From Amycolatopsis sp. (lineage in GTDB: Bacteria > Actinomycetota > Actinomycetes > Mycobacteriales > Pseudonocardiaceae): DNA of 64,000 nt. This document shows, piece after piece, positions 11,428 through 62,985 of the stretch (the first letter of the stretch is position 1; each line of letters opens with the position of its first letter). The DNA lies in contig DASZNR010000154.1 in assembly GCA_035551175.1 (NCBI GenBank), positions 17,194 to 81,193 of the forward strand. Reading direction: 5' to 3'. The position numbers and the translations under genes were made by a program. Under the pieces are notes generated by a model, which ran no database searches, was not told the DNA's origin, and saw nothing but the letters and a program-made list of their open reading frames with translations.

Positions 11428-11432
11428 CTTCG

Positions 11433-28484: not shown

Positions 28485-28879
28485 GGAATCCCGTCACCGT
28501 GACTGCCGGCGAGGTCTTGCCCGACGGGGAAACCGGGCCGGTCACCCAGACCGACGTCGTGCGGTTCGCCGGTGCGGGCGGGGATTTCAACCCGCTGCAC
28601 CACGATCCGGAGTTCGCCGCGGCCGCCGGCTTCCCCGGAGTGCTGGCGATGGGCCAGTTCCAGGCCGGGCTGCTCGCCGCGTGGCTGACCGACTGGTGCG
28701 GCATCGAGCACCTGCGCGAGTACGAGGTCCGGTTCGTCGCGCCGGTCTTCCTCGGGAACCGGCTGCGGTTCTCCGGCGAAGTCACCGCGGTCGAGGCCGG
28801 GGTCGCCGACCTGACGCTGCGGGTGACGCGCGGCGACGAGGAGATCGTCCGCGCCGCCGCGCGGGTCGCCGTTGCCTGA
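28481..28879 (+). CDS. MaoC-like (R)-specific enoyl-CoA hydratase subunit (ChsH2-like)
   Basis: GTG 28481 overlaps the previous stop (GTGA). It has the hydratase motif GDFNPLHHDPEFA. Confidence 0.85.
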   Translation: MRNPVTVTAGEVLPDGETGPVTQTDVVRFAGAGGDFNPLHHDPEFAAAAGFPGVLAMGQFQAGLLAAWLTDWCGIEHLREYEVRFVAPVFLGNRLRFSGEVTAVEAGVADLTLRVTRGDEEIVRAAARVAVA

Positions 28880-46187: not shown

Positions 46188-46235
46188 CAAAACGAAAGAC
46201 CGCGGCACCGGGTTCGCACACCCGGCGCCGCGGTC
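46188..46235 (-). terminator. intrinsic terminator after the aldehyde dehydrogenase gene (end of the mce-MMPL string)
   Basis: 16-bp stem GACCGCGGCACCGGGT / ACCCGGCGCCGCGGTC (1 mismatch) with a 6-nt loop, followed on the minus strand by CTTTCGTTTTG. Confidence 0.65.
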
Positions 46236-46246
46236 CGCGGTTTCCG

Positions 46247-47692
46247 CTACCGCCGGTCCAGATAGACCGACTGGAGCTGCTGATAAGCCGCCAGCCCTTC
46301 CGGCCCGAGCTCGCGGCCCATCCCGCTCGCCTTGACCCCGCCGAACGGCGCGGTCGGATCGGGCAGATAAGCGTTGACCCCGATGGTGCCCGTATTGACC
46401 CGCTTGGCGACCTCCGCCCCGCGTCCGGGATCCGCCGTCCACACCGAGCCGCCGAGGCCGTAGTCGGAATCGTTGGCGATGCGCACCGCGTCGTCGACCC
46501 CGTCGTAAGGGATGACCGACAGCACCGGGCCGAAGATCTCCTCCTGCGCGATCGTGAAGGCGTTGTCGACGTCGGCGAACACCGTCGGCTGTACGTACCA
46601 CCCCTTGTCCAGCTTCTCGGGCCGTCCGCCGCCCGCGGTGAGCCGGGCACCTTCAGCCTTGCCCTTGGCGATGTAGGACTCGACCCGGTCGCGGTGCCGG
46701 GCGCTGGCCATCGGGCCGATCTGGGTCGCGTGGTCCAGCGGGTCGCCCACCGCGAGGCCGCCGGCCAAGCCGGAGAACAGGTCCACGACCTGGTCGTAGA
46801 TGCCGCGCGGGGCCAGGATCCGGCTGCCCAGGTAGCAGGTCTGGCCGTTGTTGATGAACGACGTGGCGAAGAGCTGCTCGACGCTCCCGGAGAGGTCCGC
46901 GTCGTCCAGCACGATCACCGCGGACTTGCCGCCCAGTTCCAGCGTCACCGGGCGGAGCAGCCTGCCGCACGCCTCGCCGATCGCCCGGCCGGCCGCGGTC
47001 GACCCGGTGAACGCGACCTTGTCCACACCGGGGTGCGAAACCAGGTAGGCGCCGACCTCCCGTCCGGCGGGCACGAAGCTCAGCACCCCCGGCGGAACAC
47101 CGGCCTCCTCCGCCGCTTCCGCGAGCAGGAACGTGTCCAGCACCGTCTCCGGCGAAGGCTTGACGACGACAGTGCACCCGGCCGCCATGGCCGGTGCGAC
47201 CTTGAAAAAGGTAAGTGCCTGCGGGAAGTTCCACGGCACGATCGCCCCGACCACGCCGATCGGCTTCTTCCGGACCAGGGTCGTCCCGCCGAGCAGCCCC
47301 GGCCGTTCCTCCTCGGCGGCGCTCTCGCGAGCCAGATTCGCGTAGTAGCGCAACAGCATGCTGGGGAACGCGCCCTCCAGCTGCTCCGCGACGACGATCG
47401 GCATCCCGTTCTGCGCGCTGATCCGGCGCACCATCTCGTCCTTGCGCACGTCGAGCGCGTCGGCGAGGCGCTCCATCACCTCGGCCCGGCGAGCCGGTTC
47501 CCAGGAAGACCAGCCCGACGGGTCGTCGAACGCCCGGCGCGCGGCCGCGACCGCGTCGTCGATGTCCGCCTCGACGCCCAGCGGCACCGAGCCCAGCGGC
47601 TCTTCGGTCGACGCCGACACGACCTCGATGACGTCGCGGCCGTGCGGGTTCGTCCACTCCCCGCCGAGGTAGAGCTTGTCGTACTGCACCAT
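46247..47692 (-). CDS. NAD(P)+-dependent aldehyde dehydrogenase (paralog of 3429-4883)
   Basis: ATG 47692 gives 481 aa with VPWNFP, FTGSTAAG, ELGGKS, NNGQTC and EEIFGPV. By eye it is about two-thirds identical to the first ALDH. The track ORF to 48913 is an artefact. Confidence 0.92.
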   Translation of the reverse strand: MVQYDKLYLGGEWTNPHGRDVIEVVSASTEEPLGSVPLGVEADIDDAVAAARRAFDDPSGWSSWEPARRAEVMERLADALDVRKDEMVRRISAQNGMPIVVAEQLEGAFPSMLLRYYANLARESAAEEERPGLLGGTTLVRKKPIGVVGAIVPWNFPQALTFFKVAPAMAAGCTVVVKPSPETVLDTFLLAEAAEEAGVPPGVLSFVPAGREVGAYLVSHPGVDKVAFTGSTAAGRAIGEACGRLLRPVTLELGGKSAVIVLDDADLSGSVEQLFATSFINNGQTCYLGSRILAPRGIYDQVVDLFSGLAGGLAVGDPLDHATQIGPMASARHRDRVESYIAKGKAEGARLTAGGGRPEKLDKGWYVQPTVFADVDNAFTIAQEEIFGPVLSVIPYDGVDDAVRIANDSDYGLGGSVWTADPGRGAEVAKRVNTGTIGVNAYLPDPTAPFGGVKASGMGRELGPEGLAAYQQLQSVYLDRR

Positions 47693-49181: not shown

Positions 49182-51494
49182 TCAACGCACCTCCTCGAGT
49201 GTCTTCAGCGCGGGTTTCCTTGCGGTGGGTGTTTCTCTCTTTCGCGGCGGCCCGGGCACCGACACCGCGACCACGCAGGCCGCGGACAGCAGAGCCAGCA
49301 CGACGGAACCGGCGAGCAGAAGCCCGAACTGCTGGATGACCGCCAGCTTCGACACGACCAGCGCCGCATAGCCGGCCGCGGACGTGATAGCAGCGAGGAC
49401 GACCGAGCGGCGCAACGCCGGGTTGCCCGTCCGGACCGCCGCCGCGAGCACGACGGTGAACTCCGCGCCCACCGCGGCGGTCAGCGAGCCGAGCGCGACA
49501 GTGATCGGGCTCAGCGGGATTCCGCCCGCCCACAGCGCGAAAAGCCCGAGCCCGGTCGCGGCCGTCGCGGCGGCGACCGCTCGCAGCGCGTCGCTCCGCC
49601 TCCGCAGGCCGACGGCGAGCACCAGTCCCGAAGCGACGATGCCGAGCACGTTGGACCAGACCCGATCGCCGGAAATCAATTCGGAACCGCGCACGGCGGC
49701 CATCGGCAACCCCGTCAGGTCCGCCCGATACCCGGCGGGCGGGTTCGGCAGCCGCCGCAGCACGTCGTCTCTCAACTGCCGCAACGCGCCCAGGTCATTG
49801 GTCCGCGCACCGAACACGAGCACGGAGCTGGTGCGGTTCTCGCTTGCCACCGCGGAGCTGAGATACGGCGGCAGCAATCGCATCCCGGCACTGACCTGCT
49901 CGGCTGTCGCGTCGCCGCCCAGGAACGTGAGAAGCGACGGGAGCGAAATAGCGGGGCGAAGCTGGTCGCCGTGCTCGGTGACCACGGAATCCTGCGCTTG
50001 CCGCATCCACCGCAGCGCGGCCGGGGACGTCACGTCCGGCCCGCGCAGGACGAGGTCGACCTCGCCGGACGATCCCAGTGCCCGCTCGACTTCGGCCGCG
50101 TCGGCCAAGGACGGCAGCCCGGTCGCGAAAGCCTCCACATTCGCCTGCAACGGCAAGGAAGGCAGCGAATACCAGCCTGCCGCCGCGAGCGCGGCGGCGA
50201 GCACCGCCATCGCGACACCGCGTTTCCGGTGCACCGCCTTGACCGGGGCAACGGGGACGGGCTCCGCGGACGCGAATCGCCGCAGCAGCAACGCGCCCGT
50301 CACCGCCGAAAGGACCACGCCTACCGAAAGCGTCATCCCGAGATCTCGGACGAACGGCAGCGGGGACACCATCAGCATCGCGAAGCTCGCAGCACTCGCC
50401 GCCGCGACCACCAGCACGGTGCGACGCTTGGCGCGCTGGACGAAGTAAGCCGGGTAGTAGCAGCCGACGCCGAGAAGCACCGACAGAAACGCCACCACGC
50501 CAAGGGAAAGCGTCTTGCCGGACCACCCGAAGAGACCGAGTGTGAGCAGGATCGAGATCAGAGTCACCAGCAGCGGCGGCAGCCGGTGCCGGCGGCGCGT
50601 CCACGGCACCAGCCACAGTGCGAGGGCAACGGAGGCCAGCGCGACCGCCCCGATCACCGGAAGCTCCCTGGCGATTTGCTCCGCGATGGACGACGCCACT
50701 GCGGGCACGCCGGAAACGGTCACCCGGTCCGCACCGGCGGGAGCCTGCCCGACCGCCGCGCGCACTCCGGCCGCCAGCCGGGCAGTCGCGTCCTGGTCCA
50801 TGCCCTCTCGCGGGCGGACCAGCACCGCCACCGAATTCTGCGACGGAACCACGAAATGCCATTGCGCGCGGACCCCGCCGTCGCCGGAATACATGACCGA
50901 ATCCACGAAACGCTGATTGCTCAAGGTCGGCAGCCCGGCAGGCATACCCTGGACCAGAAGCGAGCCGTAACGGCGATCGAACTCGTCCTGTGCGCGCTGC
51001 CCCGCGGCTTGGGCCTTCTCCGGTGCCGCGCCCTTCGCTGCAGCCTCCTGGACCGCTTGCTGACGCACAGCGTCCCGGCGGCCGGTCAGCTCGGCCAGCA
51101 AGTCCTGCGCGCGCCCGGCGAGCTGATTCAGCACAGTCCCGGGCCCGTAGACGCTCGCCACGTCGGGCAGTCCGGCCAGCTTCCCTTCGAGACCGACCAG
51201 CTGATCGAGGTTCCGGCCGCTCAGCATCGCTTTGGGCGCCCGGGATTCGAGCAGCACCACGATCGGATCCCCGCCGAACGACCGCGCCTTTTCGTCGAGC
51301 TGTGTCACGCTCGGGTCGCCGGAGGGCAGAAACGACTCGACCGTCGTCTCCACGCGAAGTCTCGCCAAGCCGCCCGCGCCGAGACCGGCGACGCAGACCA
51401 CTGCGAGCACAAGGCACCACCCGCGCACGGTCCAAGTGCGCGGCGCCCACCGGCGCGCGAGAGCCGCCCGCGTGGCGATCCGCTGGCCGCTCAT
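49182..51494 (-). CDS. MMPL/RND-superfamily membrane transporter (770 aa, ~12 TM, two extracytoplasmic domains)
   Basis: ATG 51494 overlaps the mceF stop (ATGA). The topology read from the sequence is TM1, ~250-aa soluble domain, 5 TM, TM7, ~170-aa soluble domain, 5 TM. Confidence 0.85.
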   Translation of the reverse strand: MSGQRIATRAALARRWAPRTWTVRGWCLVLAVVCVAGLGAGGLARLRVETTVESFLPSGDPSVTQLDEKARSFGGDPIVVLLESRAPKAMLSGRNLDQLVGLEGKLAGLPDVASVYGPGTVLNQLAGRAQDLLAELTGRRDAVRQQAVQEAAAKGAAPEKAQAAGQRAQDEFDRRYGSLLVQGMPAGLPTLSNQRFVDSVMYSGDGGVRAQWHFVVPSQNSVAVLVRPREGMDQDATARLAAGVRAAVGQAPAGADRVTVSGVPAVASSIAEQIARELPVIGAVALASVALALWLVPWTRRRHRLPPLLVTLISILLTLGLFGWSGKTLSLGVVAFLSVLLGVGCYYPAYFVQRAKRRTVLVVAAASAASFAMLMVSPLPFVRDLGMTLSVGVVLSAVTGALLLRRFASAEPVPVAPVKAVHRKRGVAMAVLAAALAAAGWYSLPSLPLQANVEAFATGLPSLADAAEVERALGSSGEVDLVLRGPDVTSPAALRWMRQAQDSVVTEHGDQLRPAISLPSLLTFLGGDATAEQVSAGMRLLPPYLSSAVASENRTSSVLVFGARTNDLGALRQLRDDVLRRLPNPPAGYRADLTGLPMAAVRGSELISGDRVWSNVLGIVASGLVLAVGLRRRSDALRAVAAATAATGLGLFALWAGGIPLSPITVALGSLTAAVGAEFTVVLAAAVRTGNPALRRSVVLAAITSAAGYAALVVSKLAVIQQFGLLLAGSVVLALLSAACVVAVSVPGPPRKRETPTARKPALKTLEEVR

Positions 51495-52798
51495 CGCGGG
51501 GCCGGGAGCGGGTTCACGTGCGGGTACTGACCGCTGAACGGAACCGGCTGCACCGCGCCGGGCGCGGGGTACGGATTCCGTTCGTTCAGCGGACCCACGT
51601 TCGTGTTGAGCGGAACGCCGGTGACGGCTTGCCGGTTCAGCACCGGCAGCAACCGCAGTGCCTTCCCGTCCTTGTTGCCGGTCATCAGCGAGGCTCCCCA
51701 GTTCACGAACAGGTGCGCGATGTCCTGGCCGTAGGGCTCCAGGTAGGTCAGCATCGGGTTCAGCTGCAGCAGATCGTTCTGCAGCGACGGGATCAGGGCA
51801 TCCAGGTCGGCGGCGGCCGGCTGGATCCGCTGCACGGTCGCCGGGGCCTTGCCGAGCACCTGGTCGAGCGCCGGGAGAATGCCGCGCAGGCCGCTCGCCG
51901 CCCTCGGCAGCTGCTCGAGGGCCGTGGTGAGGTCGGGTGCGGCCGTGCGCAGGTCCCGCGCCACCGGCGCCAGCGCGCCCGAGAGCTTCGACAGGCTCGC
52001 GGTGGCCCCGTTGGCCGAGTCGAGGACCCCGGGCAGCTTCCGCACCACCTCCTGCAAGCTCTGGCCGTTGTCCGCGGTCGCCGCCGCGAGCCGGTTGGCG
52101 TTGTCGACCAGGTCCGCGATCTCGCCCTGCCTGGTGTCCAGCGCGGCGAGGAGGGTCGCCGTGCCGCCGGTCAGCTGCTTCAGGTCGGCGGACTGCGCGG
52201 CGAGTGCGTCGAGCGCGGTCTTCCCGTTCCGGCCCAGCTGGCCCAGCCCGCTCAGCGCCCGGTCGATGTCCTGCCTGCGGTCCTGCGTGGCCATGCCGAG
52301 GGACCGCAGGCTCTCGCCCAGCGCCTGCCGGGTGCCGCCGTCGAGGCTGACCAGCACGTCGTTCAGCTCGACCGCCGGTTTGGCCGAGCCGTCCGGCAGG
52401 CTCGCCCCGTTCGCCAGCGCCGCGCCCTTGCCGTCGGCGACCTCCAGGAACGTCTCGTCGACCAGCGTCTTCTGCCGGACCTGAACAGTGGCGCCGCCGT
52501 GCAGCGGCGCGTTGCTGTCCAGCTGAAGCGTCGCTCGCGCACCGTTGCCGACGACCTCCAGCGAAGCGACCTTGCCGACGGTCACGCCGGCGATCGTCAC
52601 GTCCGAGTTCTCGACCAGGTTCGACGCCTTCGGGAGGTTCAGGCTCACCCGGTAGCCGGTCTTGCTGACCAGCGGCAGCCTGCCGCCGGCGTTGACCCAC
52701 AGGTAGCCGAAGATGACGACGCAGACGAGGGCGAACACGCCGAGCACGATCAGCCGGATCTTCGGCAACGCGGCATGGGGAATGTTCATCGGGACCAC
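51491..52798 (-). CDS. mceF: MCE-family substrate-binding protein (sixth of six)
   Basis: It has an N-terminal TM (IRLIVLGVFALVCVVIFGYL) followed by an MlaD/MCE domain (VTIAGVTVGKV). The start is GTG 52798 or ATG 52789. The symbol is positional only. Confidence 0.85.
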   Translation of the reverse strand: MVPMNIPHAALPKIRLIVLGVFALVCVVIFGYLWVNAGGRLPLVSKTGYRVSLNLPKASNLVENSDVTIAGVTVGKVASLEVVGNGARATLQLDSNAPLHGGATVQVRQKTLVDETFLEVADGKGAALANGASLPDGSAKPAVELNDVLVSLDGGTRQALGESLRSLGMATQDRRQDIDRALSGLGQLGRNGKTALDALAAQSADLKQLTGGTATLLAALDTRQGEIADLVDNANRLAAATADNGQSLQEVVRKLPGVLDSANGATASLSKLSGALAPVARDLRTAAPDLTTALEQLPRAASGLRGILPALDQVLGKAPATVQRIQPAAADLDALIPSLQNDLLQLNPMLTYLEPYGQDIAHLFVNWGASLMTGNKDGKALRLLPVLNRQAVTGVPLNTNVGPLNERNPYPAPGAVQPVPFSGQYPHVNPLPAPR

Positions 52799-54079
52799 CT
52801 AGCGCGGGGAGTGCGGGAACCGGTACGGAGCGGCCGGCGTGGACAGCGGCAGCAGCGCGTTCGTGCCGAGCGTCTGCGGGGTCAGCACGAGGAAACCGCG
52901 CAGGATGCCGCCGTTTCCGTCTTTCATGCTGGTCAGCGATCGGGTGTTGACGAAGAACGCGCCGAGATCGGACAGGCTCGACACCGCCGCGCTCGTGACT
53001 CCGTTCAGCCTGCTGGTCGACGCTCGCAGGTCCGGGAGCGTCGCCTGCAAATCCGACGCCACCGGGCGGAGGTCCTGCACCACCGGCCGCGCCTTCTGCA
53101 CGACCGGCATGCCCTTGTCGACGGTGCTGCCGAGATTGCCGACGGTGTTGCTCAGCTTGTTCAACGCTCCGGGAAGGGTGCCCGCGGCGTTCTTGAGGTT
53201 GTCCAGCGTCGGGTCCAGCTGGCCGCTGAGCGACTGCACCGCGTCAGTGGCCTGCTTGAGCTGCCGGGTGAAGTCCGGCAGCTGGCCGAGCACCGATTTG
53301 AGGTCGCCGTTGTGCGCGCCGACGGCCGCCAGCGTGGTGTTCAGATCTCCGGCGAGGCGGCCGAGCCGGTCGCCGTCGCCGCCGACCGCCTGCGAGATCT
53401 GCGACAACGCCGTCACCAGCCGCTGCAACGCGTCCCGGCGGGACTGCAGCGATTCGACGACCGGCTGCAGCTTCTTGGCCACCTCATCCGTCATCCGGAC
53501 ACCGCCGGGCAGGTTCTGCGGCGCGGCGGCCAAGGCGACGTCGGACTCCTGGAGAAGGGTGGCCAGCGCCTGCCGGGTGTTGTCGTCGAGGTGACCCAGG
53601 ACCTCGTCGATCTGAACCGGGCGCTGTGACTGCGAAACGGGCAGCACGCCGTCGGCGTCCAGCTTCGGCGCGGGCGGGCCGCCGGGACTCAGCTCGACGT
53701 ACATCTCGTTCAGCGGGCTCTTCGGCCGCAGGACGACGGTCGCGTTCTGGTACACGGGATAGCGGGAATCGATCGACAGCTCCAGCCGGGGCCGTCCGCT
53801 GTCGTCCAGGCCGGCCGCCTCGATCTCCCCCACCTGCACCCCGGCGATGCGCACTTCCTGGCCGTGGCCCGGGCTGACGCCCGGCGTGTCCTCGAACGTC
53901 GCGGAGAAGGTGAACCGGTCGTTCCACGGCCAGGAGAACCGCTGGTTGGCCAGGATGATGCCGCCGACCAGTGCCGCCAGCACGATCAACGCCGCCAGCA
54001 CCGCGACGTTGCGGAACAGCCCTGGTTCGGTGCGGACCCGCTGCCAGCCCCGTCCGATCTTGCCGAGCCGCGCGTTCAT
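52799..54079 (-). CDS. mceE: MCE-family substrate-binding protein (fifth)
   Basis: ATG 54079 overlaps the mceD stop. It has a TM segment followed by an MCE domain (VRIAGVQVGEI). Confidence 0.85.
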   Translation of the reverse strand: MNARLGKIGRGWQRVRTEPGLFRNVAVLAALIVLAALVGGIILANQRFSWPWNDRFTFSATFEDTPGVSPGHGQEVRIAGVQVGEIEAAGLDDSGRPRLELSIDSRYPVYQNATVVLRPKSPLNEMYVELSPGGPPAPKLDADGVLPVSQSQRPVQIDEVLGHLDDNTRQALATLLQESDVALAAAPQNLPGGVRMTDEVAKKLQPVVESLQSRRDALQRLVTALSQISQAVGGDGDRLGRLAGDLNTTLAAVGAHNGDLKSVLGQLPDFTRQLKQATDAVQSLSGQLDPTLDNLKNAAGTLPGALNKLSNTVGNLGSTVDKGMPVVQKARPVVQDLRPVASDLQATLPDLRASTSRLNGVTSAAVSSLSDLGAFFVNTRSLTSMKDGNGGILRGFLVLTPQTLGTNALLPLSTPAAPYRFPHSPR

Positions 54080-55431
54080 CGGCCCCCCTGCTGGTTGAGG
54101 TGGATCTGCTGCTGAAGCTGGTCGAGGAAGTGCTGGAGGTTCACCGGCAGCCCGCCCGCGGTGCCCAGCCCGAACCCGACCTGGATCGCGATCGCGTGCC
54201 CGTTCGGGTCGAACAGCGACGAGGTCTTGTCCAGATTCGTCACCGCGCCGCCGATCTCCTGGTACATCGGAACGTCCGAAGTGGACTGGGCGTACTCGCC
54301 GGCGCCGTGGTACTTGCTGTACAGGAAGTCCTTGACCGGACCGTTCAGCCGGTCCAGCACCGGCCCGCGCACGTCGGAGAGAACCCCGGTCGCGTCGCGG
54401 CTGACCGGGACGAGCTGATTCACCAGCGGTCCCGCGTCGGCGAGAAGAGCATTGGTCTGCCGGACGAACGGCTCTGTCTTCGCGAGGACCGGGTCAAGGC
54501 GCGTGAGCGCGGCGGACAACTGCTTGACGGTCGGCCGCGCGACGTCCGAAGTGTCACGCAGCTTGCCGAGGCTGGTGTCGAGCCGGTTCAGTCCCGCGTC
54601 GGCGGAGCGCAGCGTCGCGGGCAGATCCCGGACTGTCGCGGCGATTTCACTGCTCTCCTCGCCCAGGGTGGAGCTGACCTTCGCCAGGTTCGAGACTGTC
54701 GAATCGAGCTGTCCCTGATGCTCGGACAACCTCGCGGACGCGGATTCCAGACCGGTGACCAAGTTCGGCAAGTCAGTGCCGGGGTGCTGGCCGCGCGCCG
54801 CGTCGAGCACGTTCCCCGCCGGTTCGAGAACGTCCGGGGCGTCCGCCAGGAGCTGGTCGATCGCCTGCCGCCCGCCGCCGCGCAACGTCTCGTCCGTCTT
54901 GCCGACCGTGTGCTGCAGCCCGGCCAAAGCGTCCGGCTGCACCGTGTTGGCCACCTGGTCGAGTTCCACCGGAAGCTGCGTCCGCTCCACCGGGATGCCG
55001 GAATCGGCCAGCTCGCCCGGAGCACCGCCCGGCTGGAGATCGACGAAGTAGTTGCCGCCCAGCAGAGTGGTCGGGCGGATCGCCGCGCTCGGCTTGGACC
55101 GCAGTTTCGCCAGCGTTCCCTTGTCCAGCTTGAGCGAAACCACCGCGCTGCCGTCGGTCTGCTCGTCCACCCCGGTGACCGTGCCGACCGGCGCGAACCC
55201 GACCTTGACCTGGGATTGGTAAGGCTGCAACCGATAGTTCCGGGCGAAGTGCGCGGTGATCGTGTCGCCGGGCGACAGCGTCGTGACGATCTGGGATTTC
55301 GCGAACAGGCCGATGCCGACCAGCAGAATCAGCACCACGAAGAGGCTGCCCAGCTTGACCGGGGAGATCCGCCGGCGAACGCCGTCCGGGCGGGCGCCGC
55401 CGAACAGCCTGCGAAGCGTCGACTCGGTCAT
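54076..55431 (-). CDS. mceD: MCE-family substrate-binding protein (fourth)
   Basis: ATG 55431 overlaps the mceC stop. It has a TM (LGSLFVVLILLVGIGLF), an MCE domain and a helical repeat region. Confidence 0.85.
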   Translation of the reverse strand: MTESTLRRLFGGARPDGVRRRISPVKLGSLFVVLILLVGIGLFAKSQIVTTLSPGDTITAHFARNYRLQPYQSQVKVGFAPVGTVTGVDEQTDGSAVVSLKLDKGTLAKLRSKPSAAIRPTTLLGGNYFVDLQPGGAPGELADSGIPVERTQLPVELDQVANTVQPDALAGLQHTVGKTDETLRGGGRQAIDQLLADAPDVLEPAGNVLDAARGQHPGTDLPNLVTGLESASARLSEHQGQLDSTVSNLAKVSSTLGEESSEIAATVRDLPATLRSADAGLNRLDTSLGKLRDTSDVARPTVKQLSAALTRLDPVLAKTEPFVRQTNALLADAGPLVNQLVPVSRDATGVLSDVRGPVLDRLNGPVKDFLYSKYHGAGEYAQSTSDVPMYQEIGGAVTNLDKTSSLFDPNGHAIAIQVGFGLGTAGGLPVNLQHFLDQLQQQIHLNQQGGR

Positions 55432-56726
55432 TGGCCCGCTCCTGTCGTCCCGGCCGCCGAACCGCGACGCTGCCCGCCAGCCGTCCCTGGCGGGGCATAG
55501 GGGTCACGAGCTGCGGTCGGATCCTTGAGCCCGACCAGACCGGTCACCGATTCGGTGTCGATCGGGGTGTAGATCCGGAGGAAATGCCCTGCCGCGTCGC
55601 CGTATTTCATGGCGTCGGCGAAATCGGAGAAGAACTCGGAGATCTCCGGCGAATAGGGGGCGATCTGCTCCAGCGGCTTCCGTGCCGTGGTGACCGCGGA
55701 CGTCAGCAGCGGGGCCAGCGGCCGCGCGTCGGCCAGCGTGCCGGTCAAGGCGCCGACCGCCGGTTGCGCCTGATCCGCCACGCCGGGAACCCGTTGCAAC
55801 GGCGGAATGCTCTCGCGCAGCACGCCGCGGACGTCCGGAGTCGCCTTGCCGAGCGCGTTCGCACCCGGCCGCAACGCGGTCACCGCCGCCTCCGTGTCGG
55901 ACAACGGACCGTGCAGGTCCCGCAACGCGCCACGGACCTTCTCCAGCGTGCCCGGCGCCCGATCCATCGTGTCGCTCAGCGGCTTTCCGTTGTCCGCGTC
56001 CAGTGCGCGCAAGGTGGTGTCCAGCCGTCCGGCCAGTTCGCCGAGTTGCTGCTGCCTTCCGGAGAAGCCCCCGGCGAAATGGTTGGCGACCTGCAGCAGG
56101 CGAGTCAGGTCCTGTCCGGACCCCGCGCTCAGCGCCCGCGAAACCGTGCCGAGGTCGGGCACGATCGCGGGCAGCGCACCCGCCGCGTCGGAAAAGTCCT
56201 TCACGTGTCCGGCCGCGCCGCCGCCGACCTCGCGGACGGTCGAGCCGAGCGCCTGCCGGGTGGGTGCGTCAAGCACCGCCAGCACGTCCGAAAGCTCTTG
56301 TGCCCCGACTGTTTTGGTCGCCGGAATCACCGCGGCCGAGTCGAGTTTGCCCGCTTTCGGATCCCCGGGATTCAGGTCGACGTACTTCTGGCCCAGCGCG
56401 GACCTCGCCCCGACGGACGCGGTCACCGCCGACGCGTCCCGGAAGACCTGCCGATCGTCGTCGAGCCGCATGGTGACCCGCGGCTTCCCGTCGACCAGAT
56501 CGATCGCGCTCACCTGGCCCACCCGCACGTTCGCGATCCGGACGTCGTCGCCCGCCCGCAGCGCGCCGACGTCGTCGAACGTGGCGCGCACTACCGTCCC
56601 GGAGGCGCCGGGCAGTCCCGAACTCGCGGTGAGCGCGAGGTAGAGCGCGCCGCCGAACACGACGGCGATCGCCCCGCCCAGCAGCATGGCCCGCCGCCGC
56701 GCCCACTTCCCGCTTCCAGTGGCCAT
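55428..56726 (-). CDS. mceC: MCE-family substrate-binding protein (third)
   Basis: ATG 56726. It has a TM followed by an MCE domain (VRIANVRVGQV). Confidence 0.85.
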   Translation of the reverse strand: MATGSGKWARRRAMLLGGAIAVVFGGALYLALTASSGLPGASGTVVRATFDDVGALRAGDDVRIANVRVGQVSAIDLVDGKPRVTMRLDDDRQVFRDASAVTASVGARSALGQKYVDLNPGDPKAGKLDSAAVIPATKTVGAQELSDVLAVLDAPTRQALGSTVREVGGGAAGHVKDFSDAAGALPAIVPDLGTVSRALSAGSGQDLTRLLQVANHFAGGFSGRQQQLGELAGRLDTTLRALDADNGKPLSDTMDRAPGTLEKVRGALRDLHGPLSDTEAAVTALRPGANALGKATPDVRGVLRESIPPLQRVPGVADQAQPAVGALTGTLADARPLAPLLTSAVTTARKPLEQIAPYSPEISEFFSDFADAMKYGDAAGHFLRIYTPIDTESVTGLVGLKDPTAARDPYAPPGTAGGQRRGSAAGTTGAGQ

Positions 56727-56729
56727 CAG

Positions 56730-58103
56730 TCAGTTCCCTCCGAGCAGGAATTGCAGTGCACCGTTTTCCTGGCCCTGCGACATTCCGGTGACGCTCCCGT
56801 CTGGGCCGGTCTTCGGAGCCAGCAGCCCGCCGAGCGGCGCGGGGGCCGCAGCCGGAGGCTTGCCCGCGGCCGGTGCCTGCCCGGTGGGCGCGGGGGCGGC
56901 AGTTTGCGGCTGCCCCGCCAGCGACGGCAGGAGGCCGGTCGCGATTCGCGGGTCGACGACGAACAGCGCCCGGAAGTAGTGGGAAAGGCCGTCGCTGCCG
57001 TTGGTGCTCAACGCCCAGCCGCGGACGAAGTTCATGACGTCGCCGATGTTGTTCGCCAGCTCGGCCGTGACCGGCTTGAGCGCGGCCGCGTCCGCCCGCA
57101 GCGGAGGGCTTGCCTTCAGCAGTTCCTGGGTGACCGGCCTCGCCGCGTCGAGCAGCGCCTGTGCCTTGTCGAGCACCGGCTGCGCATGCGTCAGCGCCGG
57201 GTCGGCGCTTTCGGTGAACCGGGTGATCTCGTCGCTGATCGCCTGGAGGTTCCCGGTGACCGGCCGGATGTCGGCGAGCACCGGGGTCGCGGCGCCGGCC
57301 GTCCCGGCGAGCTGCGACAACGTCGAGCGCGCTTGGGCCAGAGTCGCGGGCAGCTGGGCGAGCGTCTGCTGCACCTGCTGTTGCTTGCCCGCTGTCGTGG
57401 CGAGAAGGTTGTGAGTCGACTCGACCAAGGAGTCCAGCGTCTGGCCGTTGTCCCGCGCGAGCGACTGCGCGACCGGCTCGACGTTGTCCACCAATTGGTT
57501 CAGCGTCGTGTTCTGCTCGTTGAGCACCTTGGCGAGCCCGCTCGCGTCGGTCATCGCCGGTGCCAACGCCTTGATCGTGTCCGCGACGTGGGTGCCATTG
57601 CCTTGCATGCCCTGGCCCAGCATGGTGACCAGAGCCGCGAGCGCATCGCCGGTGTTCTGGTCGAACACGTTGAGCACCTGGTCGAGGTCGGTGTTCTGAG
57701 TCGTGTGCGCGAGGGGGATCACTCCGCCCGGGCGCAGCACCGGAGCCGCGGGCGTGCCGCGGCCGAGGTCGAGAAAGCGCTCGCCGAGAAGGCTTACCGG
57801 GCGGACCGCCGCGGTGGCGTCGACGTGCAGCGGCAGGGCTCGTTCGTCCACCGTGAACGTGACGGCCGCGTGACCGTCCACAACGGACATCGCGGTCACC
57901 GTTCCGACGGCCACCCCGTCCACTTTGACGTCGTTGCCCACCAGCAGCGGACTGGCGTCGGCGAACTGCGCGACGACAGTCTGCGGCTCGTGATGCCCCG
58001 CGGCCTCCGCGCCCAGCACCGACCAGCCGAGGCCCACCGCTGCGACCACGACGACGCTGAGCAGCCGCAACCGGCGTGCCGCCCAAGACCCGATCCGCTT
58101 CAT
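56730..58103 (-). CDS. mceB: MCE-family substrate-binding protein (second), with Pro/Ala-rich C-terminal tail
   Basis: ATG 58103 overlaps the mceA stop (ATGA). It has a TM followed by an MCE domain (VKVDGVAVGTV). The track ORF to 59369 is an artefact. Confidence 0.85.
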   Translation of the reverse strand: MKRIGSWAARRLRLLSVVVVAAVGLGWSVLGAEAAGHHEPQTVVAQFADASPLLVGNDVKVDGVAVGTVTAMSVVDGHAAVTFTVDERALPLHVDATAAVRPVSLLGERFLDLGRGTPAAPVLRPGGVIPLAHTTQNTDLDQVLNVFDQNTGDALAALVTMLGQGMQGNGTHVADTIKALAPAMTDASGLAKVLNEQNTTLNQLVDNVEPVAQSLARDNGQTLDSLVESTHNLLATTAGKQQQVQQTLAQLPATLAQARSTLSQLAGTAGAATPVLADIRPVTGNLQAISDEITRFTESADPALTHAQPVLDKAQALLDAARPVTQELLKASPPLRADAAALKPVTAELANNIGDVMNFVRGWALSTNGSDGLSHYFRALFVVDPRIATGLLPSLAGQPQTAAPAPTGQAPAAGKPPAAAPAPLGGLLAPKTGPDGSVTGMSQGQENGALQFLLGGN

Positions 58104-59332
58104 CGCACTCCACTCCCCCACGCGTCTTTCCACGGCTGGTTGGCGTTCGCGCCGGGCAGCGGATACGGCTCGTTCTGGGTTCCCGGCGGCAGCACCCCCG
58201 GGTTGTCCGCGAACGTCGTGGCGCCCTCTTGCAGATAGAACCGGACGAAGTGGCCGTTCGCGTCGTAGTTGCCGCCGTTGGACGACCATTCCGAAACCCA
58301 GCCGGCGAGTTCCGGGGTGAACGGCCGCAGGTAATTCAGCACCGGGCCGAGGTAGCTGGCCGTGCCCGCGACCCCGGGCACCGTCTGGTGCGCGACGTCG
58401 AGCAAGCCCGGCGTGGCGTCGAGCAACTGGTTCGCTCCGGCCAAGGTCGGGGCCAGTTTGTCCAGCAGTGGCGGGATCTGCTGCAGCACCGGCGAAAGCT
58501 TCCTCGCCACCGACGGCAGCTGTTGCGTCGCCGGTTGGAGGTCTTGCAGCAGCGGAACCGCCTTGTCCGCGGTCGCCGGCACAGTGCCGAGCACCCGGTT
58601 GGCAGTGTCCAAAGTCCCCGGAAGCTGTTTGAGCGTGCTCGCCAGCTGCTGCCGCTGTTGAACCGTCAGCGCCGTCGTCTTCGACAGCGAGTCGATGATC
58701 GCGCGCACGTCTCCGTCGTGTTTGGACAGTGTCCCGACCATCGAGTTGACCTGGGTGACGAGATCGCGCACAGCGGGGCCGTCCCGCCCGATCCCGCTCA
58801 GCACCTGTCCGAGGGACGACAGCGCGGGACCGGCGGCACGCAAGGTGTCGCTGGCGTTCCGCTCGTTCCCGTGCACGGTCTGGTCGAGCTGGTTCACCAA
58901 CGACGAGAGGTGCTCGCGCGTCGGCTTGTCCAGCGCGGCCAGCACGTCGTCGAGGTTCGTCGGAGCGATTTGCGAGCCGGGGAGCATCCCGCCGTCCGGG
59001 ATCGCCGCGTTGGCGGGCGCGCCGTCCTTGATTTCGACCCACCGCTCCCCCAGCAGGGCTTTCCACTCCACGGTCACCTTCGCGCCGTCGTGCAGCGGGG
59101 CGCTCTTTTCGTCGAGCGCGAGCCGCAGCATCGCTTTCCCGTCCTGGACCGAGATCGACTCGACCTTCCCGGCCGGAAAGCCGTTCATGGTGACCTCGCC
59201 GCCCTCGTGCAGGTTCGTCGCCGAAGCCAGCACGACGCCCACTCGGTAGACCCGGCTGTCCACGGCCCAGACGAGGCCCGCGGCCACCAGGACGGCGACC
59301 GCGATCACTCCAGCAAGCACTCCTCTGCGCAC
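58100..59332 (-). CDS. mceA: MCE-family substrate-binding protein (first)
   Basis: GTG 59332. It has a TM (VLAGVIAVAVLVAAGLV) followed by an MCE domain (VTMNGFPAGKV). Confidence 0.85.
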   Translation of the reverse strand: MRRGVLAGVIAVAVLVAAGLVWAVDSRVYRVGVVLASATNLHEGGEVTMNGFPAGKVESISVQDGKAMLRLALDEKSAPLHDGAKVTVEWKALLGERWVEIKDGAPANAAIPDGGMLPGSQIAPTNLDDVLAALDKPTREHLSSLVNQLDQTVHGNERNASDTLRAAGPALSSLGQVLSGIGRDGPAVRDLVTQVNSMVGTLSKHDGDVRAIIDSLSKTTALTVQQRQQLASTLKQLPGTLDTANRVLGTVPATADKAVPLLQDLQPATQQLPSVARKLSPVLQQIPPLLDKLAPTLAGANQLLDATPGLLDVAHQTVPGVAGTASYLGPVLNYLRPFTPELAGWVSEWSSNGGNYDANGHFVRFYLQEGATTFADNPGVLPPGTQNEPYPLPGANANQPWKDAWGSGVR

Positions 59333-59337
59333 CGGAA

Positions 59338-60189
59338 TCAGTCCATTCCCAGCGGCCCCGCGGAATCACCCGCGAGGAACTGCCGGACGAACGGGTCCTG
59401 CGACGCGAACGCCTCCTCGGCCTCGCCGTAGTGCACCACTTTGCCCTTCCAGATCAAGCCCACGTAGTCGCTGACTTTGCGCGCGCTGCGAATGTCGTGG
59501 GTCACCACGAGATAGGTGCCCTTGTGCCGCTCGTGCATCTGCAGGATGAGATCGCACAACAGGCTGGTGCGCACCGGATCCAGCCCGGAATCCGGCTCGT
59601 CGAACAACACGATCTCCGGGTTCATCACCAGCGCCCGCGCGAAGCCGGCGCGCTTGCGCATCCCGCCGGAGATCTCGCTCGGGTGTTTGGTCAGCGCTGC
59701 TTCGAGGCCCACCTCGATCAGCCGCTCCATGACGATGTTCTCGATCTCGGCCTCGGGCAGATCGGTGTGCTTGCGCAACGGGAACGCGACATTGTCGTAA
59801 ATGTTCATCGAGCCGAACAGCGCGCCGTCCTGGAACAGCACCCCGAACCGCTTCCGCAGTTCGTAGCGCTCGTGCTCGCTTATCCGCCAGATGTCCTTGC
59901 CGAAGATCAGCACCTCGCCGTCGTCCGGTTCGAGCAGTCCGACCAGATGCTTGATGAGCACGCTCTTGCCGGTGCCCGAAGGGCCGAGGACAGTCGTGAT
60001 CGCGTCGTTGGCGAACTCCAGATTGAGCCCGTTGAGCACGTGGAAATCGCCGAACGCCTTGTGCACGTCGCGCACCTGCATCGTGTGCGCGGGCCTTCCG
60101 ACCGCCGGGGCGACGCTCCCGAACGGAACCGTCGGGTCCGGATCGGACACCGCCCGCGCGGCGGGGATCTTCGCGCTTCCGGAATTCAC
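59338..60189 (-). CDS. mceG: ABC-transporter ATPase (MceG/Mkl/MlaF-like)
   Basis: GTG 60189 is preceded by GAGGAGG (alternative ATG 60081). It has Walker A GPSGTGKS, signature ISGGMRKR and Walker B VLFDEPDSGLD. Confidence 0.88.
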   Translation of the reverse strand: MNSGSAKIPAARAVSDPDPTVPFGSVAPAVGRPAHTMQVRDVHKAFGDFHVLNGLNLEFANDAITTVLGPSGTGKSVLIKHLVGLLEPDDGEVLIFGKDIWRISEHERYELRKRFGVLFQDGALFGSMNIYDNVAFPLRKHTDLPEAEIENIVMERLIEVGLEAALTKHPSEISGGMRKRAGFARALVMNPEIVLFDEPDSGLDPVRTSLLCDLILQMHERHKGTYLVVTHDIRSARKVSDYVGLIWKGKVVHYGEAEEAFASQDPFVRQFLAGDSAGPLGMD

Positions 60190-60236: not shown

Positions 60237-61100
60237 CTAATTCGCGATCGGCGCGTTCGGGCTGAGCCCCCAGAACAACTGGGTGCCGAGCAATCCGACG
60301 ACGTGGATCAGCACCATGGACAGCATCATGGATTTCGCGGTGTTCTTGCCGACGCCGACCGGCCCGCCGCCCGCGGTGTAGCCGTAATAGCAGCCGACGA
60401 ACACCACGACGGTGCCCATCGCCAGCGCCTTCGCCAAGGAGTACAAGAAGTCCAGCGGATTCTGGAACAGCCAGAAGGTGTACAGATAGCCGCCGGAGGA
60501 GACCCCGCTCAGCTGGACGACCGTGACCAGGTACATCGACAGGTACATCAGGCCGAGCCCGACCGTGAACAGCAACGGCATGGCGATCCAGGTGGCCACG
60601 ATCCGGGTGCCCACGAGGTAGCTGCGCGACCGGATCCCCATCACCTCCATCGCGTCGATCTCCTCCGCGATGCGCATCGACCCGATCTCCGCGACCAGGC
60701 CACAGCCGACCTTCGCCGCGAAGATGTAGCCCCACATGTACGGAGCCATTTCCCGGGTTCCGCAATAGGTGTTGAAGATCCCGCTGTAGATCGGCGCGCC
60801 GATCTGCTTGAGCGTGTAGCTCGCTTCCAGCCCGCACACCGAGCCCATCACGAACTGCATCATCCAGATGATCAGGCCGCTGGACAGGATGAGAATGCCC
60901 GCCTGGTGGAAGATTTCCGAGAAATAGCGGCGAACCTGCGGCAGCGCGCGGGCGGTCTGCCCGGAGAACCGGGCGATCTCTCCGCCGGTGGCGAGCGCCT
61001 CGCGCATTTTCGCGCCGATGTTCGCCGCAGAAATGTGGACGTCAGGCGGTTTCGGCGCGCGCGACACGCGTGCCGGAGGGAGGTCTTCGTCGATCGACAT
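60237..61100 (-). CDS. yrbEB: MlaE/YrbE-family permease
   Basis: 287 aa, polytopic, with the conserved EEIDAMEVMG motif. Confidence 0.88.
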   Translation of the reverse strand: MSIDEDLPPARVSRAPKPPDVHISAANIGAKMREALATGGEIARFSGQTARALPQVRRYFSEIFHQAGILILSSGLIIWMMQFVMGSVCGLEASYTLKQIGAPIYSGIFNTYCGTREMAPYMWGYIFAAKVGCGLVAEIGSMRIAEEIDAMEVMGIRSRSYLVGTRIVATWIAMPLLFTVGLGLMYLSMYLVTVVQLSGVSSGGYLYTFWLFQNPLDFLYSLAKALAMGTVVVFVGCYYGYTAGGGPVGVGKNTAKSMMLSMVLIHVVGLLGTQLFWGLSPNAPIAN

Positions 61101-61109
61101 GCGCCGGCC

Positions 61110-61946
61110 TTACTTGTAGACCTGCATCTGCGGGTTGAGCCCGAGCAGGATGGTCGTGAAGACGTAATCGATGATCCAGATGGCGGCGAACGCGCTCACC
61201 ACCGCCTGGTTGACCGCGCGGCCGACCCCGATCGGGCCGCCCTTCACATGGATGCCCTTGTAGCAGCACACGACGCCGATGATGAAACCGAACACGGTCG
61301 TCTTGGCCACGCTGCCCCAGATGTCGATGGTCGTCGCGTTGTCGAAGAAGCTGGCGAAGAAGCTCGCCTGGTTCGCCCCGAAGACCACCACCCCGGCGAG
61401 ATAGCCGCCGACGACGCCGAAGACCAGCGCCACCAGGTCCATCAGCCCGGTCATGAAGGTGACCGCCAAGACCCGGGGCAGCACCAGATCCCGGATCGGG
61501 TCGACGCCGAGCACTTCCATCGCGTCGATCTCTTCCCGGATCCGCCGGGCCCCGAGGTCCGCGGTCATGGCGGTGCCGACCACCCCGGCCACCACCATCG
61601 CGTTGATCCACGGCGCGAACTCGCGCACGCTCGCCATGATGAAGAACGAGCCCAGCCGCTCCGGAATGCCGAACAGCAGGAAGATGTTGCCGCCCTGCAA
61701 GCCCGGCGCGCCCAGGCCGAACGCCGTCGTGGACACGGCCATCGGAAGCCAGCACAGCCGGAGGATGCCGAACATCTGGTCGCGCACCGAACCCCAATAG
61801 CCGACCGGATGCCGCACCGCCGACCGCACCACCTCGCCCGCGAGCTGCACCATCTCGCCGGCTTCCGCCAGCGGGGAACCAGTCTTGGCGAGGAACCCGC
61901 CGCCGAGCGGCTTCCGTTTCGGCTTCGCAGCCGCTGGCGCGGTCAT
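61110..61946 (-). CDS. yrbEA: MlaE/YrbE-family permease
   Basis: ATG 61946 overlaps the upstream stop (ATGA). 278 aa with the EEIDAMEVLG motif. Confidence 0.88.
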   Translation of the reverse strand: MTAPAAAKPKRKPLGGGFLAKTGSPLAEAGEMVQLAGEVVRSAVRHPVGYWGSVRDQMFGILRLCWLPMAVSTTAFGLGAPGLQGGNIFLLFGIPERLGSFFIMASVREFAPWINAMVVAGVVGTAMTADLGARRIREEIDAMEVLGVDPIRDLVLPRVLAVTFMTGLMDLVALVFGVVGGYLAGVVVFGANQASFFASFFDNATTIDIWGSVAKTTVFGFIIGVVCCYKGIHVKGGPIGVGRAVNQAVVSAFAAIWIIDYVFTTILLGLNPQMQVYK

Positions 61947-62358: not shown

Positions 62359-62985
62359 TCACGCCGAGACCTCCTCCGGCGCGAGCAGTTCGGCGAGATT
62401 GCGCGTCGCGCGCAACTGCAGCTGCCGCAACGCGGTCCGGCTGCGGCCCAGTGCGAGTGCTGTCTCCGCAACCGAACGACCCTCGAGAAATCGCAGGTAC
62501 AGACACTCCCGCTGGGCCGGGGCGAGTTGTGCCAGCCTGGTCCAGACCACGTCCCGGGCCAGCCGCCGCAGCACCAGATCTTCCGCGCTCGGTTCGGCCG
62601 GGCCGGTGTCGTCGGGCGCGCTCACCGGTGTCACCGAGCGCTGGTACCGGGACTTCGCGTGGTCGAAGACCATATTCCGGCCGATCGTGAACAGCCAGGC
62701 GCGGAACTTTCCTTTCTGGAACCGCACCCCGTCCAGCGATCGAAGCATCCGCACGAACACTTCGCTGGTCAGGTCGTCCGCGAGGTCAGGACTCGCCACC
62801 TTCGACCGGATGAAGCGCCGCACCGCGCCGACGTGCGCGCGGTAAAGCGCCGCCACCGACTCGATATCGCCGCGCCGCGCCGATTCGAGCAGCGCCCAGG
62901 ACTCCTCGTCGGGGAAGAAGTCCCGCTCCCGCAGCGGATCAGAATCGGATGACGCCGCGGATGTTGCGGCCGGCGAGGAGATCAT
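62359..62985 (-). CDS. ECF-type sigma-70 family RNA polymerase sigma factor
   Basis: Region 2 is ARRGDIESVAALYRAHVGAVRRFI...DDLTSEVFVRM. Region 4 HTH is SVAETALALGRSRTALRQLQLRA. ATG 62985 is the only plausible start and lies 47 nt inside the upstream ADH gene. Confidence 0.85.
   Translation of the reverse strand: MISSPAATSAASSDSDPLRERDFFPDEESWALLESARRGDIESVAALYRAHVGAVRRFIRSKVASPDLADDLTSEVFVRMLRSLDGVRFQKGKFRAWLFTIGRNMVFDHAKSRYQRSVTPVSAPDDTGPAEPSAEDLVLRRLARDVVWTRLAQLAPAQRECLYLRFLEGRSVAETALALGRSRTALRQLQLRATRNLAELLAPEEVSA

Follow-up and report, generated by a model that had tools for sequence, protein, structure and literature searches.

An RND-superfamily permease as a proposed constant member of a separate Mce operon class in actinobacteria

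Mce systems represent the main route by which actinobacteria, among them pathogens and pollutant degraders, acquire water-insoluble nutrients such as sterols and fatty acids, and the manner in which substrate enters and leaves the Mce tunnel, together with the roles of accessory proteins, are open questions in the field. The 64-kb stretch of Amycolatopsis sp. DNA analyzed here (contig DASZNR010000154.1 of assembly GCA_035551175.1, positions 17,194 to 81,193; 69.8% G+C; referred to as the window) harbors an mce operon whose sixth and last MCE gene, mceF, overlaps a gene encoding a 12-helix permease of the resistance-nodulation-division (RND) superfamily, and the locus raises the question of what such a permease contributes to an Mce system. 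The original prediction for this locus, made from the sequence, labeled the gene product an MMPL permease, proposed a hard-wired pairing with the mce genes through translational coupling, and suggested three possible functions, namely, an import/efflux valve, an accessory of the Mce needle, or envelope remodeling needed for uptake. The comparative data presented below indicate that the RND protein very probably serves this Mce system as a dedicated functional part, and it is predicted to form a fixed part of a distinct actinobacterial Mce class with the composition YrbEA-YrbEB-ATPase-MceA-F-RND-PrsA/SurA-like protein-two-transmembrane (2-TM) peptide.

To assess the linkage of the two elements, one genome per GTDB species was scanned with an alignment of RND homologs, whereby 265 stretches were matched and the best 80 loci were retained. 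The open reading frames (ORFs) of these loci were classified with the window's own proteins and, as two loci were without upstream DNA, 78 were testable. An MceF ortholog was encoded upstream of the RND gene, and on the same strand, in all 78, and the order yrbE-yrbE-ATPase-six mce genes-RND-parvulin was observed in every testable locus with the exception of that of a Pseudonocardia metagenome-assembled genome (MAG; L039), in which the parvulin gene and a small ORF are positioned between mceF and the RND gene (mce6-parvulin-small ORF-RND). The parvulin-type protein was encoded by 79 of the 80 loci. The taxa represented are Amycolatopsis, Pseudonocardia, Haloechinothrix, Saccharopolyspora, Sciscionella, Actinophytocola, and Actinomycetospora, as well as Nocardioides, Marmoricola, Aeromicrobium, Frankia, Protofrankia, Streptomyces humicola, and one Mycobacterium MAG. 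Twelve of the sampled genomes hold two to four copies of the module, and in each copy for which upstream DNA is available, mceF precedes the RND gene. A second yrbE-yrbE-ATPase-mce operon was also seen to begin straight after the first module in Amycolatopsis acididurans (L056). A tblastn search of the RND protein against 72,556 plasmids returned no match, and when the MceF protein alone was used to scan metagenomes, a single contig of 1.4 kb was recovered.

The RND protein co-diverges with MceA and MceF at an r value of about 0.9. Pairwise RND identity correlates with that of MceF (r = 0.89), MceA (r = 0.90), and the parvulin-type protein (r = 0.87), and more weakly with that of YrbEB (0.63) and the ATPase (0.67), while RND and MceF have a common nearest neighbor in 57 of 72 loci.

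The linkage extends to far more distant relatives. An exhaustive profile-free search delineated a compact family of approximately 45 full-length clusters (formed at 50% identity) with at least 39% identity to the window protein, the next relatives being found at about 25 to 37%. The same operon was encountered in Nitriliruptor alkaliphilus (L086) and on a metagenome contig (L087), the RND proteins of which exhibit 31 to 39% identity. A second RND clade, represented by six looked-up metagenome contigs of 67 to 71% G+C, comprises proteins of 804 to 1,188 amino acids (aa) which are annotated as HAE3 and share 28 to 31% identity with the window protein; Solirubrobacteraceae is the taxon name on one of the further listed relatives. 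In five of the six contigs (L088, L089, L090, L092, and L093) the RND gene, encoding 804 to 911 aa and located at about 8001-11700, directly follows six mce genes, whose best matches run from MceA to MceF as they do in the window. In L088, L092, and L093 the gene following that of the RND protein encodes not a parvulin but a membrane-anchored thioredoxin-fold (Redoxin/AhpC-TSA) protein devoid of a CxxC motif, with a 4-nucleotide (nt) overlap at the junction in two of the three. A B3_4-domain protein is also encoded downstream of the RND gene on these three contigs. As the pairing of RND and Mce is kept in both clades, it is proposed that their link is old and constant and that it is the periplasmic partner which varies by clade. 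The hard-wired pairing originally proposed was, therefore, observed in 78 of 78 testable orthologous loci, in L086 and L087, and in five of six loci of the second clade; orthologs in relatives, whose separation from mce loci would have spoken against the prediction, proved to be linked to them.

The junction between the two genes was found to be as originally described, in that the mceF stop codon (TGA, 51493-51491) overlaps the ATG of the RND gene (51494-51492) on the minus strand, forming a 4-nt ATGA in the context CCG CGA TGA. The same type of overlap recurs among the mce genes themselves, at mceA/mceB (ATG 58103), mceC/mceD, and mceD/mceE. From ATG 51494, the RND frame extends to a stop codon at 49184-49182 and specifies 770 aa; the 1,172-aa ORF of the program-made list is this same frame, which remains open through mceF. 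No Shine-Dalgarno-like motif was detected in the 30 nt upstream of the RND ATG, the gene that follows, encoding the parvulin-type protein, having its own GAGGAGG, a sequence which the RND start lacks. Across the 78 testable loci, an in-frame ATGA is present at the junction in 32 and a GTGA in 13, together 45, while A occupies only 4.6% of the third codon positions of mceF; the corresponding excess has a binomial P of ~1e-22, calculated on loci which are not phylogenetically independent.

Two alternative in-frame starts, GTG 51428 and GTG 51410, are available to the RND gene. The latter would yield a 742-aa product, which is the annotated length of the RefSeq relative WP_240690890.1, a protein which shares the 90%-identity cluster of the window RND and lacks 28 residues relative to the product of 770 aa. 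GTG 51410, according to both hydropathy and the AlphaFold2 model, falls within the first transmembrane helix (TM1) and, when taken as the start, conceals the overlap with mceF. Because homology in other loci extends to residues 1 to 19 and because GTG 51410 is located inside TM1, both GTG codons are considered less likely starts, and ATG 51494 is predicted to be the start codon, as the sole candidate which fits both the extent of homology and an intact TM1.

No terminator-like hairpin was detected at the mceF-RND junction, and a strong hairpin is first encountered at 46236-46197, past the aldehyde dehydrogenase gene; a sigma-70 promoter scan gave no match either, a result which is weakly informative at best for high-GC actinobacteria such as the present organism. 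On the basis of the overlap and the missing ribosome-binding site, mceF and the RND gene are predicted to be a translationally coupled pair. As to the further claim of stoichiometric coproduction, the overlap allows translational coupling but is no proof of a 1:1 stoichiometry. Each subunit of Mce1 occurs once per complex (PMC13492129), and one RND protein per Mce machine would be compatible with coupling to the last mce gene.

The predicted topology of the RND protein (TM1, residues 20 to 48; TM2 to TM6, 274 to 405; TM7, 426 to 445; TM8 to TM12, 612 to 750, by hydropathy) is that of the RND superfamily, with a two-fold repeat and large extracytoplasmic loops following TM1 and TM7; these periplasmic loops span residues 46 to 262 and 447 to 610, the first containing a helical hairpin (118 to 183). 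The AlphaFold2 model (pLDDT confidence score of 86.3; pTM score of 0.79) was matched by Foldseek with a probability of 1.00 to MmpL, HpnN, and NPC1-type RND proteins, the best matches being MmpL4/5, HpnN, and MmpL3, followed by NPC1L1, Patched, and NCR1 (TM-scores of 0.6 to 0.65; 12 to 17% identity). No direct sequence match was found in the PDB. The Pfam MMPL family (PF03176) was matched at 25.3 bits against a cutoff of 20.5, in one partial stretch of residues 213 to 355, and three curated NCBIfam models scored below their cutoffs: TIGR00921 (HAE3; 129.8 versus 351.9 bits), which is the nearest named family and not one to which the protein belongs, TIGR03480 (HpnN; 29.2 versus 751.9 bits), and TIGR00833 (actII/MMPL; 26.9 versus 874.7 bits). 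No match to SecD or SecF was obtained in Pfam or NCBIfam, nor was one present among the top 50 Foldseek matches, all of which are lipid or sterol RND proteins. The MMPL label, therefore, applies only loosely, the fold being MmpL/HpnN/NPC1-like but the Pfam match being marginal and partial and the actII, HAE3, and HpnN cutoffs being missed; we assign the protein, by topology and fold, to the RND superfamily and place it outside the curated MMPL (actII), HAE3, HpnN, and SecDF families. A RefSeq protein of unclassified Amycolatopsis shares its 90%-identity cluster, and the best named relative is a protein of A. acidiphila (85% identity). Database names for these relatives are generic ("RND transporter," "MMPL family transporter," or "hypothetical protein").

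Glu678, located in TM10, is kept in 77 of the 80 family members and in all members of the second clade, while the corresponding TM4 position is occupied by Asp in 40 and by Tyr in 36 of the 80, the window protein carrying Tyr (YY versus DF). In the profile alignment, the TM4 motif of HpnN reads GVDF, with an Asp, whereas its matching TM10 motif reads GVAF, with an Ala. Because the putative proton-relay carboxylate Glu678 is retained, the RND protein is proposed to be an active engine driven by the proton motive force (PMF) rather than a passive scaffold. Loop 1 is the richest in near-invariant positions (41 of 217 conserved at ≥95%), with the motifs VYGPxTxLNQ, GRRD, FDxRYG, and GLPTLxN, and VYGPxTxLN is common to both RND clades, the second retaining VYGPGTF(L/I)N together with the TM10 Glu and the TM4 Asp. 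The protein thus resembles MmpL3, MmpL4/5-MmpS, and HpnN in its 12 helices, its two periplasmic loops, and its best structural matches, in the GxxxD/E-F/Y motif of TM4/TM10, of which HpnN likewise has an Asp at one of the two copies in the alignment, in a loop 1 hairpin which recalls the coiled coil of MmpL4/5, and in a small or anchored periplasmic partner encoded next door, as is the case for MmpS. It differs from MmpL and HpnN in its low identity to them (13 to 17%), in placing the carboxylate in TM10 and not in TM4, in its own loop 1 signature (VYGPxTxLN), and in its linkage to Mce-system genes in every locus examined, which is undescribed for any MmpL or HpnN.

The protein encoded directly downstream of the RND gene is composed of a cytoplasmic tail, a single TM helix (residues 68 to 89), a SurA_N-like domain, and a parvulin domain (Pfam SurA_N_3 and Rotamase), and its parvulin profile matches are PrsA (E = 9e-23), Cbf2/PEB4, and SurA. 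It, therefore, has the predicted architecture of a PrsA/SurA/PpiD-type parvulin chaperone located outside the cytoplasm. Within residues 249 to 332 it exhibits RNIVV and GWN, as opposed to the xHILV and G(W/F/Y)H of active parvulins; where SurA domain P2 has GWH, the second His is replaced by Asn. N330 and N253 are invariant in 29 parvulin homologs, N253 occupying what we take, from our own alignment to Par10, to be the first parvulin His position. Because of the GWN-for-GWH substitution and the invariance of N330 and N253, the protein may act as a chaperone or adaptor and not as an isomerase, and its parvulin domain is probably a noncatalytic chaperone domain. The parvulin domain of PpiD is likewise reported to be noncatalytic. 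A third gene, which usually overlaps that of the parvulin-type protein by 4 nt, specifies a small 2-TM ORF of 62 to 84 aa with a basic loop (WGRRNA...LRRGA) and was found in at least 56 of the 79 loci which encode the parvulin-type protein; no Pfam family was identified for the 64-aa representative of the window.

Two independent gene fusions, as read from the predicted ORFs, show the periplasmic partner physically tethered to the RND protein. The first, P0184 (L085, 950-4288), is a 1,112-aa in-frame RND-parvulin fusion with an extra TM segment which is lipobox-like (LLLSGC); it stems from one singleton contig, on which the small ORF comes next and overlaps it by 4 nt. The second, P0273 (L091), joins the RND protein to an AhpC/TSA domain, and its gene is preceded by that of an MlaF-like ATPase. 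A third candidate, P0147 (1,113 aa), was rejected, as its RND match ends at residue 551, its parvulin match starts at residue 811, and the corresponding window frames are offset, and it is a probable frameshift artifact.

When compared with described systems, the operon most resembles a canonical Mce importer to which an MmpL/HpnN-like engine and a PpiD/PrsA-like adaptor would have been added. Its two MlaE-type permease genes, six MlaD-domain genes, and MlaF/Mkl/MceG-type ATPase gene identify it as an Mce operon, and with the canonical representatives (Mce1 to Mce4 of Mycobacterium and mce of Streptomyces) it shares two YrbE proteins, six MCE genes A to F, an MlaF/Mkl-type ATPase, overlapping stop and start codons, and an association with the catabolism of hydrophobic nutrients (PMC1810536; PMC13492129). 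Unlike the canonical operons, in which the ATPase is encoded upstream (Mkl) or elsewhere (MceG) and Mas genes are located downstream, as outlined in a 2007 phylogenomic survey (PMC1810536), the present operon carries its ATPase gene between yrbEB and mceA, and the Mam/Mas position after mceF is taken by the RND protein, the PrsA/SurA-like protein, and the 2-TM peptide; no Mam/Mas gene was found after mceF, the four downstream products being unlike the ~160-aa Mas domain as described in that survey. The MceF product differs further in scoring slightly below the cutoff of TIGR00996 (129 versus 140.5 bits). The known Mce accessory factors comprise MceG, LucA/B, Mam/Omam, and Mce1N, and a 2026 review of the field makes no mention of RND or MmpL proteins (PMC13492129). 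No description of an Mce-RND operon was found in the searchable literature, subscription journals not being covered, and the literature matches for Mycobacterium avium concerned MCE and MMPL genes at separate loci. Further parallels may be drawn with PqiAB(C) and LetAB, in which an MCE tunnel protein and a polytopic inner membrane protein that is not an ABC permease are encoded in one operon (PMC13492129), PqiA and LetA being, however, unrelated to RND proteins and replacing the ABC engine, whereas the RND protein is added here to a complete one.

Based on these observations, we propose that the RND protein is a PMF-driven, envelope-side partner of Mce uptake which takes the place of the Mam/Mas accessories, a reading to which we assign a probability of roughly 0.45. 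Ribosomes terminating at mceF would reinitiate at the overlapping ATGA, there being no separate ribosome-binding site, and the RND protein would be placed in the membrane beside the YrbEAB/Mce base. Loop 1, with its helical hairpin, and the tethered chaperone-like partner would then assist the Mce importer from the wall side, where a hydrophobic substrate or lipid may be shuttled between the Mce tunnel and the outer leaflet or wall, with stabilization of the MceA-F needle as an additional or alternative task, the RND module assuming the position of the Mam/Mas proteins of canonical operons. The sequence data show the linkage, the overlap, the co-divergence, the fold class, the conserved Glu, and the partner fusions, whereas contact of the RND protein with the Mce complex, the direction of transport, and the stoichiometry are features that we infer.

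A number of points weigh against this proposal. The loci were gathered by RND similarity, meaning that linkage was viewed from the RND side and not from that of Mce operons, and overlapping stop and start codons are common in operons and are no proof of stoichiometric assembly. In L091, the RND gene directly follows that of the MlaF-like ATPase at the contig end, with no mce gene between them. The Asp-to-Tyr replacement in TM4 of the window protein is predicted to cut the proton relay to one carboxylate, the partners are noncanonical at the sites which are catalytic in their families (GWN for GWH; no CxxC), and the structurally closest RND proteins (MmpL3/4/5 and HpnN) are exporters, whose folds would fit efflux at least equally well.

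A stronger form of the partner proposal, which we regard as tentative and on balance doubtful, holds that the ATP-driven Mce tunnel and the proton-driven RND protein constitute one dual-energized uptake machine, a supercomplex, in monoderm Actinomycetota. With a similarly guarded degree of belief, it may be envisaged that, in such a supercomplex, the RND protein with its tethered parvulin-type or thioredoxin-fold adaptor loads, clears, or gates the path of the hydrophobic substrate through the thick cell wall.

The efflux function suggested by the exporter folds would make the RND protein a safety valve, coexpressed with Mce import in the absence of a complex and expelling excess substrate or toxic intermediates by means of the PMF. 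In favor of a valve, MmpL3/4/5 and HpnN, which have the closest solved folds, export lipids or siderophores, conservation of the TM10 Glu is seen, and the operon lies in catabolic islands for membrane-active substrates (beta-oxidation; L087, L086, and L001). A precedent exists in Pseudomonas putida, in which the solvent-efflux RND genes ttgDEF adjoin the tod catabolic operon, an RND pump thereby standing beside genes for the degradation of membrane-toxic hydrophobic compounds; unlike the present protein, such pumps are tripartite HAE1 systems of diderms, linked to enzymes and not to an importer, and are without overlap coupling or a chaperone partner. A valve would have no need of translational coupling to mceF or of a chaperone-like protein tethered to it, yet fusions with the partner exist, and the RND gene adjoined Mce-system genes in every locus examined. 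Moreover, loop 1 is conserved even though the loci differ widely in catabolic context and presumably in substrate, and the RND protein co-diverges with MceA and MceF and not with the enzymes; it is for these reasons that the accessory or partner role is favored over a substrate-specific valve, which we consider unlikely. Among the three functions originally suggested, between which the sequence does not decide, it is, therefore, the Mce accessory or partner which is tentatively favored over the efflux valve, envelope remodeling being without specific support.

Judged just as unlikely as the valve is an assembly machine in which the RND protein, the PrsA/SurA-like protein, and the 2-TM peptide export, fold, or maintain MceA-F and handle no lipid. 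The partner is PrsA-like by sequence (E = 1e-22), that of the second clade belongs likewise to a folding-catalyst family by virtue of its thioredoxin fold, the fusions show RND and partner acting together, and conservation is independent of the substrate context; in addition, the module stands in for Mam/Mas, which are stabilizers of Mce complexes (PMC13492129). By composition, the SecDF-YajC-PpiD assembly also offers a parallel in favor of this explanation, consisting as it does of a PMF-driven RND-superfamily protein (SecDF), a small membrane protein (YajC), and an anchored SurA_N/parvulin chaperone (PpiD) whose parvulin domain is probably noncatalytic. The SecDF analogy was, nonetheless, supported neither by sequence, with no match to a SecD or SecF model, nor by fold among the top 50 structural matches, and the present genes form part of a lipid-transporter operon and are not accompanied by sec genes. 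The GWN of the parvulin domain and the lack of CxxC in the thioredoxin-fold protein render catalytic folding doubtful, and assembly factors are substoichiometric and have no need for coupling to mceF.

Finally, it is highly improbable that the RND protein is an unrelated passenger which independently exports an envelope lipid and shares only a promoter with the mce genes, for, although actinobacterial MmpL-type proteins generally export cell envelope lipids, its position is kept in 78 of 78 loci and in the second clade at 28 to 31% identity, its divergence follows that of the Mce subunits, and duplication affects the entire module together.

Should the partner proposal hold, this operon may be the first case in which lipid engines powered by ATP and by the PMF cooperate in uptake, and the supercomplex, if true, would make this the first bacterial RND protein to serve as an obligate importer subunit. 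The exchange of accessory genes for an RND protein and a chaperone-like partner represents a natural experiment that may tell what is missing from the Mce core, and the uncharacterized RND lineage comes with genetic handles in the form of Glu678, the VYGPxTxLN loop, and the natural fusions. There is also a bearing on annotation, as relatives carry generic names and at least one RefSeq relative (WP_240690890.1) starts inside TM1.

The gene map of the operon, derived from Pfam and NCBIfam scans together with codon-position G+C, is provided in Table 1 and completes the originally described gene context, in which the parvulin-type partner, the 2-TM ORF, and the in-operon MlaF-like ATPase were not mentioned. 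The ATPase gene, located between yrbEB and mceA, may start at GTG 60189 or GTG 60150, and the aldehyde dehydrogenase gene is probably the last of the mce-RND transcription unit.

Table 1. Coordinates of the mce-RND operon and associated features in the window
Feature	Position	Strand	Evidence and remarks
yrbEA (MlaE-type permease)	61110..61853	-	Pfam MlaE, 199 bits; start uncertain, ATG 61853 or ATG 61946
yrbEB (MlaE-type permease)	60237..61100	-	Pfam MlaE, 196 bits
MlaF/Mkl-like ABC ATPase	59338..60189	-	Pfam ABC_tran; NCBIfam MlaF PRK11831, 214 bits
mceA	58100..59332	-	MlaD + Mce4_CUP1
mceB	56730..58103	-	MlaD; ATG 58103 overlaps mceA stop by 4 nt
mceC	55428..56726	-	MlaD
mceD	54076..55431	-	MlaD; ATGA overlap with mceC
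mceE	52799..54079	-	MlaD; ATGA overlap with mceD
mceF, 435 aa, sixth and last MCE gene	51491..52798	-	MlaD + Mce4_CUP1
ATGA stop/start overlap, mceF-RND	51491..51494	-	Sequence; ATGA/GTGA kept in 45/78 loci
RND permease, 770 aa, 12 TM helices	49182..51494	-	Topology, AlphaFold2 model, Pfam/NCBIfam, family alignment
Membrane-anchored SurA_N/parvulin protein, 411 aa	47944..49179	-	ATG 2 nt past RND stop; GAGGAGG
2-TM hairpin ORF, 64 aa	47734..47928	-	Motif WGRRNA...LRRGA
Aldehyde dehydrogenase	46247..47692	-	Pfam Aldedh, 510 bits; 41-nt gap to 64-aa ORF
Terminator-like hairpin, 17 pairs (13 G-C), then T-rich tail	46197..46236	-	After aldehyde dehydrogenase

The operon is embedded in a catabolic island (positions 1-47700 and 62939-63907) whose content suggests that it serves the breakdown of hydrophobic acids or hydrocarbons. 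The acyl-CoA genes comprise at least seven acyl-CoA dehydrogenase genes, at least six enoyl-CoA hydratase genes, five CoA ligase genes, and genes encoding a thiolase and CoA-transferases; also present are those specifying an HMGL-like lyase, a luciferase-like monooxygenase, Zn-dependent alcohol dehydrogenases (ADHs), two aldehyde dehydrogenases (ALDHs), an amidase, two APH-like kinases, and a MaoC pair, along with GAF-LuxR, PucR-like, TetR, and GntR regulators. The module's neighbors differ elsewhere, being Rieske, LigB, and hydrolase genes in L001, ALDH, P450, and ferredoxin genes in L003, P450/ADH/ALDH and ferredoxin genes in L086, an AlkB-rubredoxin gene in L087, and MCC-like carboxylase genes in other loci. 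Among the first two downstream genes of 69 loci, GAF-LuxR regulators account for 16 of 130, CoA ligases for 8, MCC-like carboxylases for 5, and LigB for 5, a heterogeneity in which no single substrate could be assigned to the module. Given that the neighboring catabolic genes differ among loci, the module appears to be a portable cassette which serves the uptake of various hydrophobic substrates. Within the island, adjoining small ORFs at 28068-28879 on the plus strand match FAS1_DH_region and MaoC_dehydratase, a pair which resembles the heteromeric ChsH1/ChsH2-type hydratases of steroid side chain degradation.

An extracytoplasmic function (ECF) sigma factor gene is located on the minus strand at 62359-62856, 505 nt upstream of yrbEA, and in L054, L060, and L083 ECF-like genes directly follow the module; the sigma factor is possibly a dedicated regulator. 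Lastly, a proline-rich motif, (N/E)PYPxPG, is located near the C termini of MceA (residues 387 to 394) and MceF (408 to 414), its residues N408, P409, P411, and G414 being nearly invariant among MceF orthologs, and a variant, DPYAPPG, is carried at the C terminus of MceC; the motif may possibly represent a distal-tip or partner-docking element.

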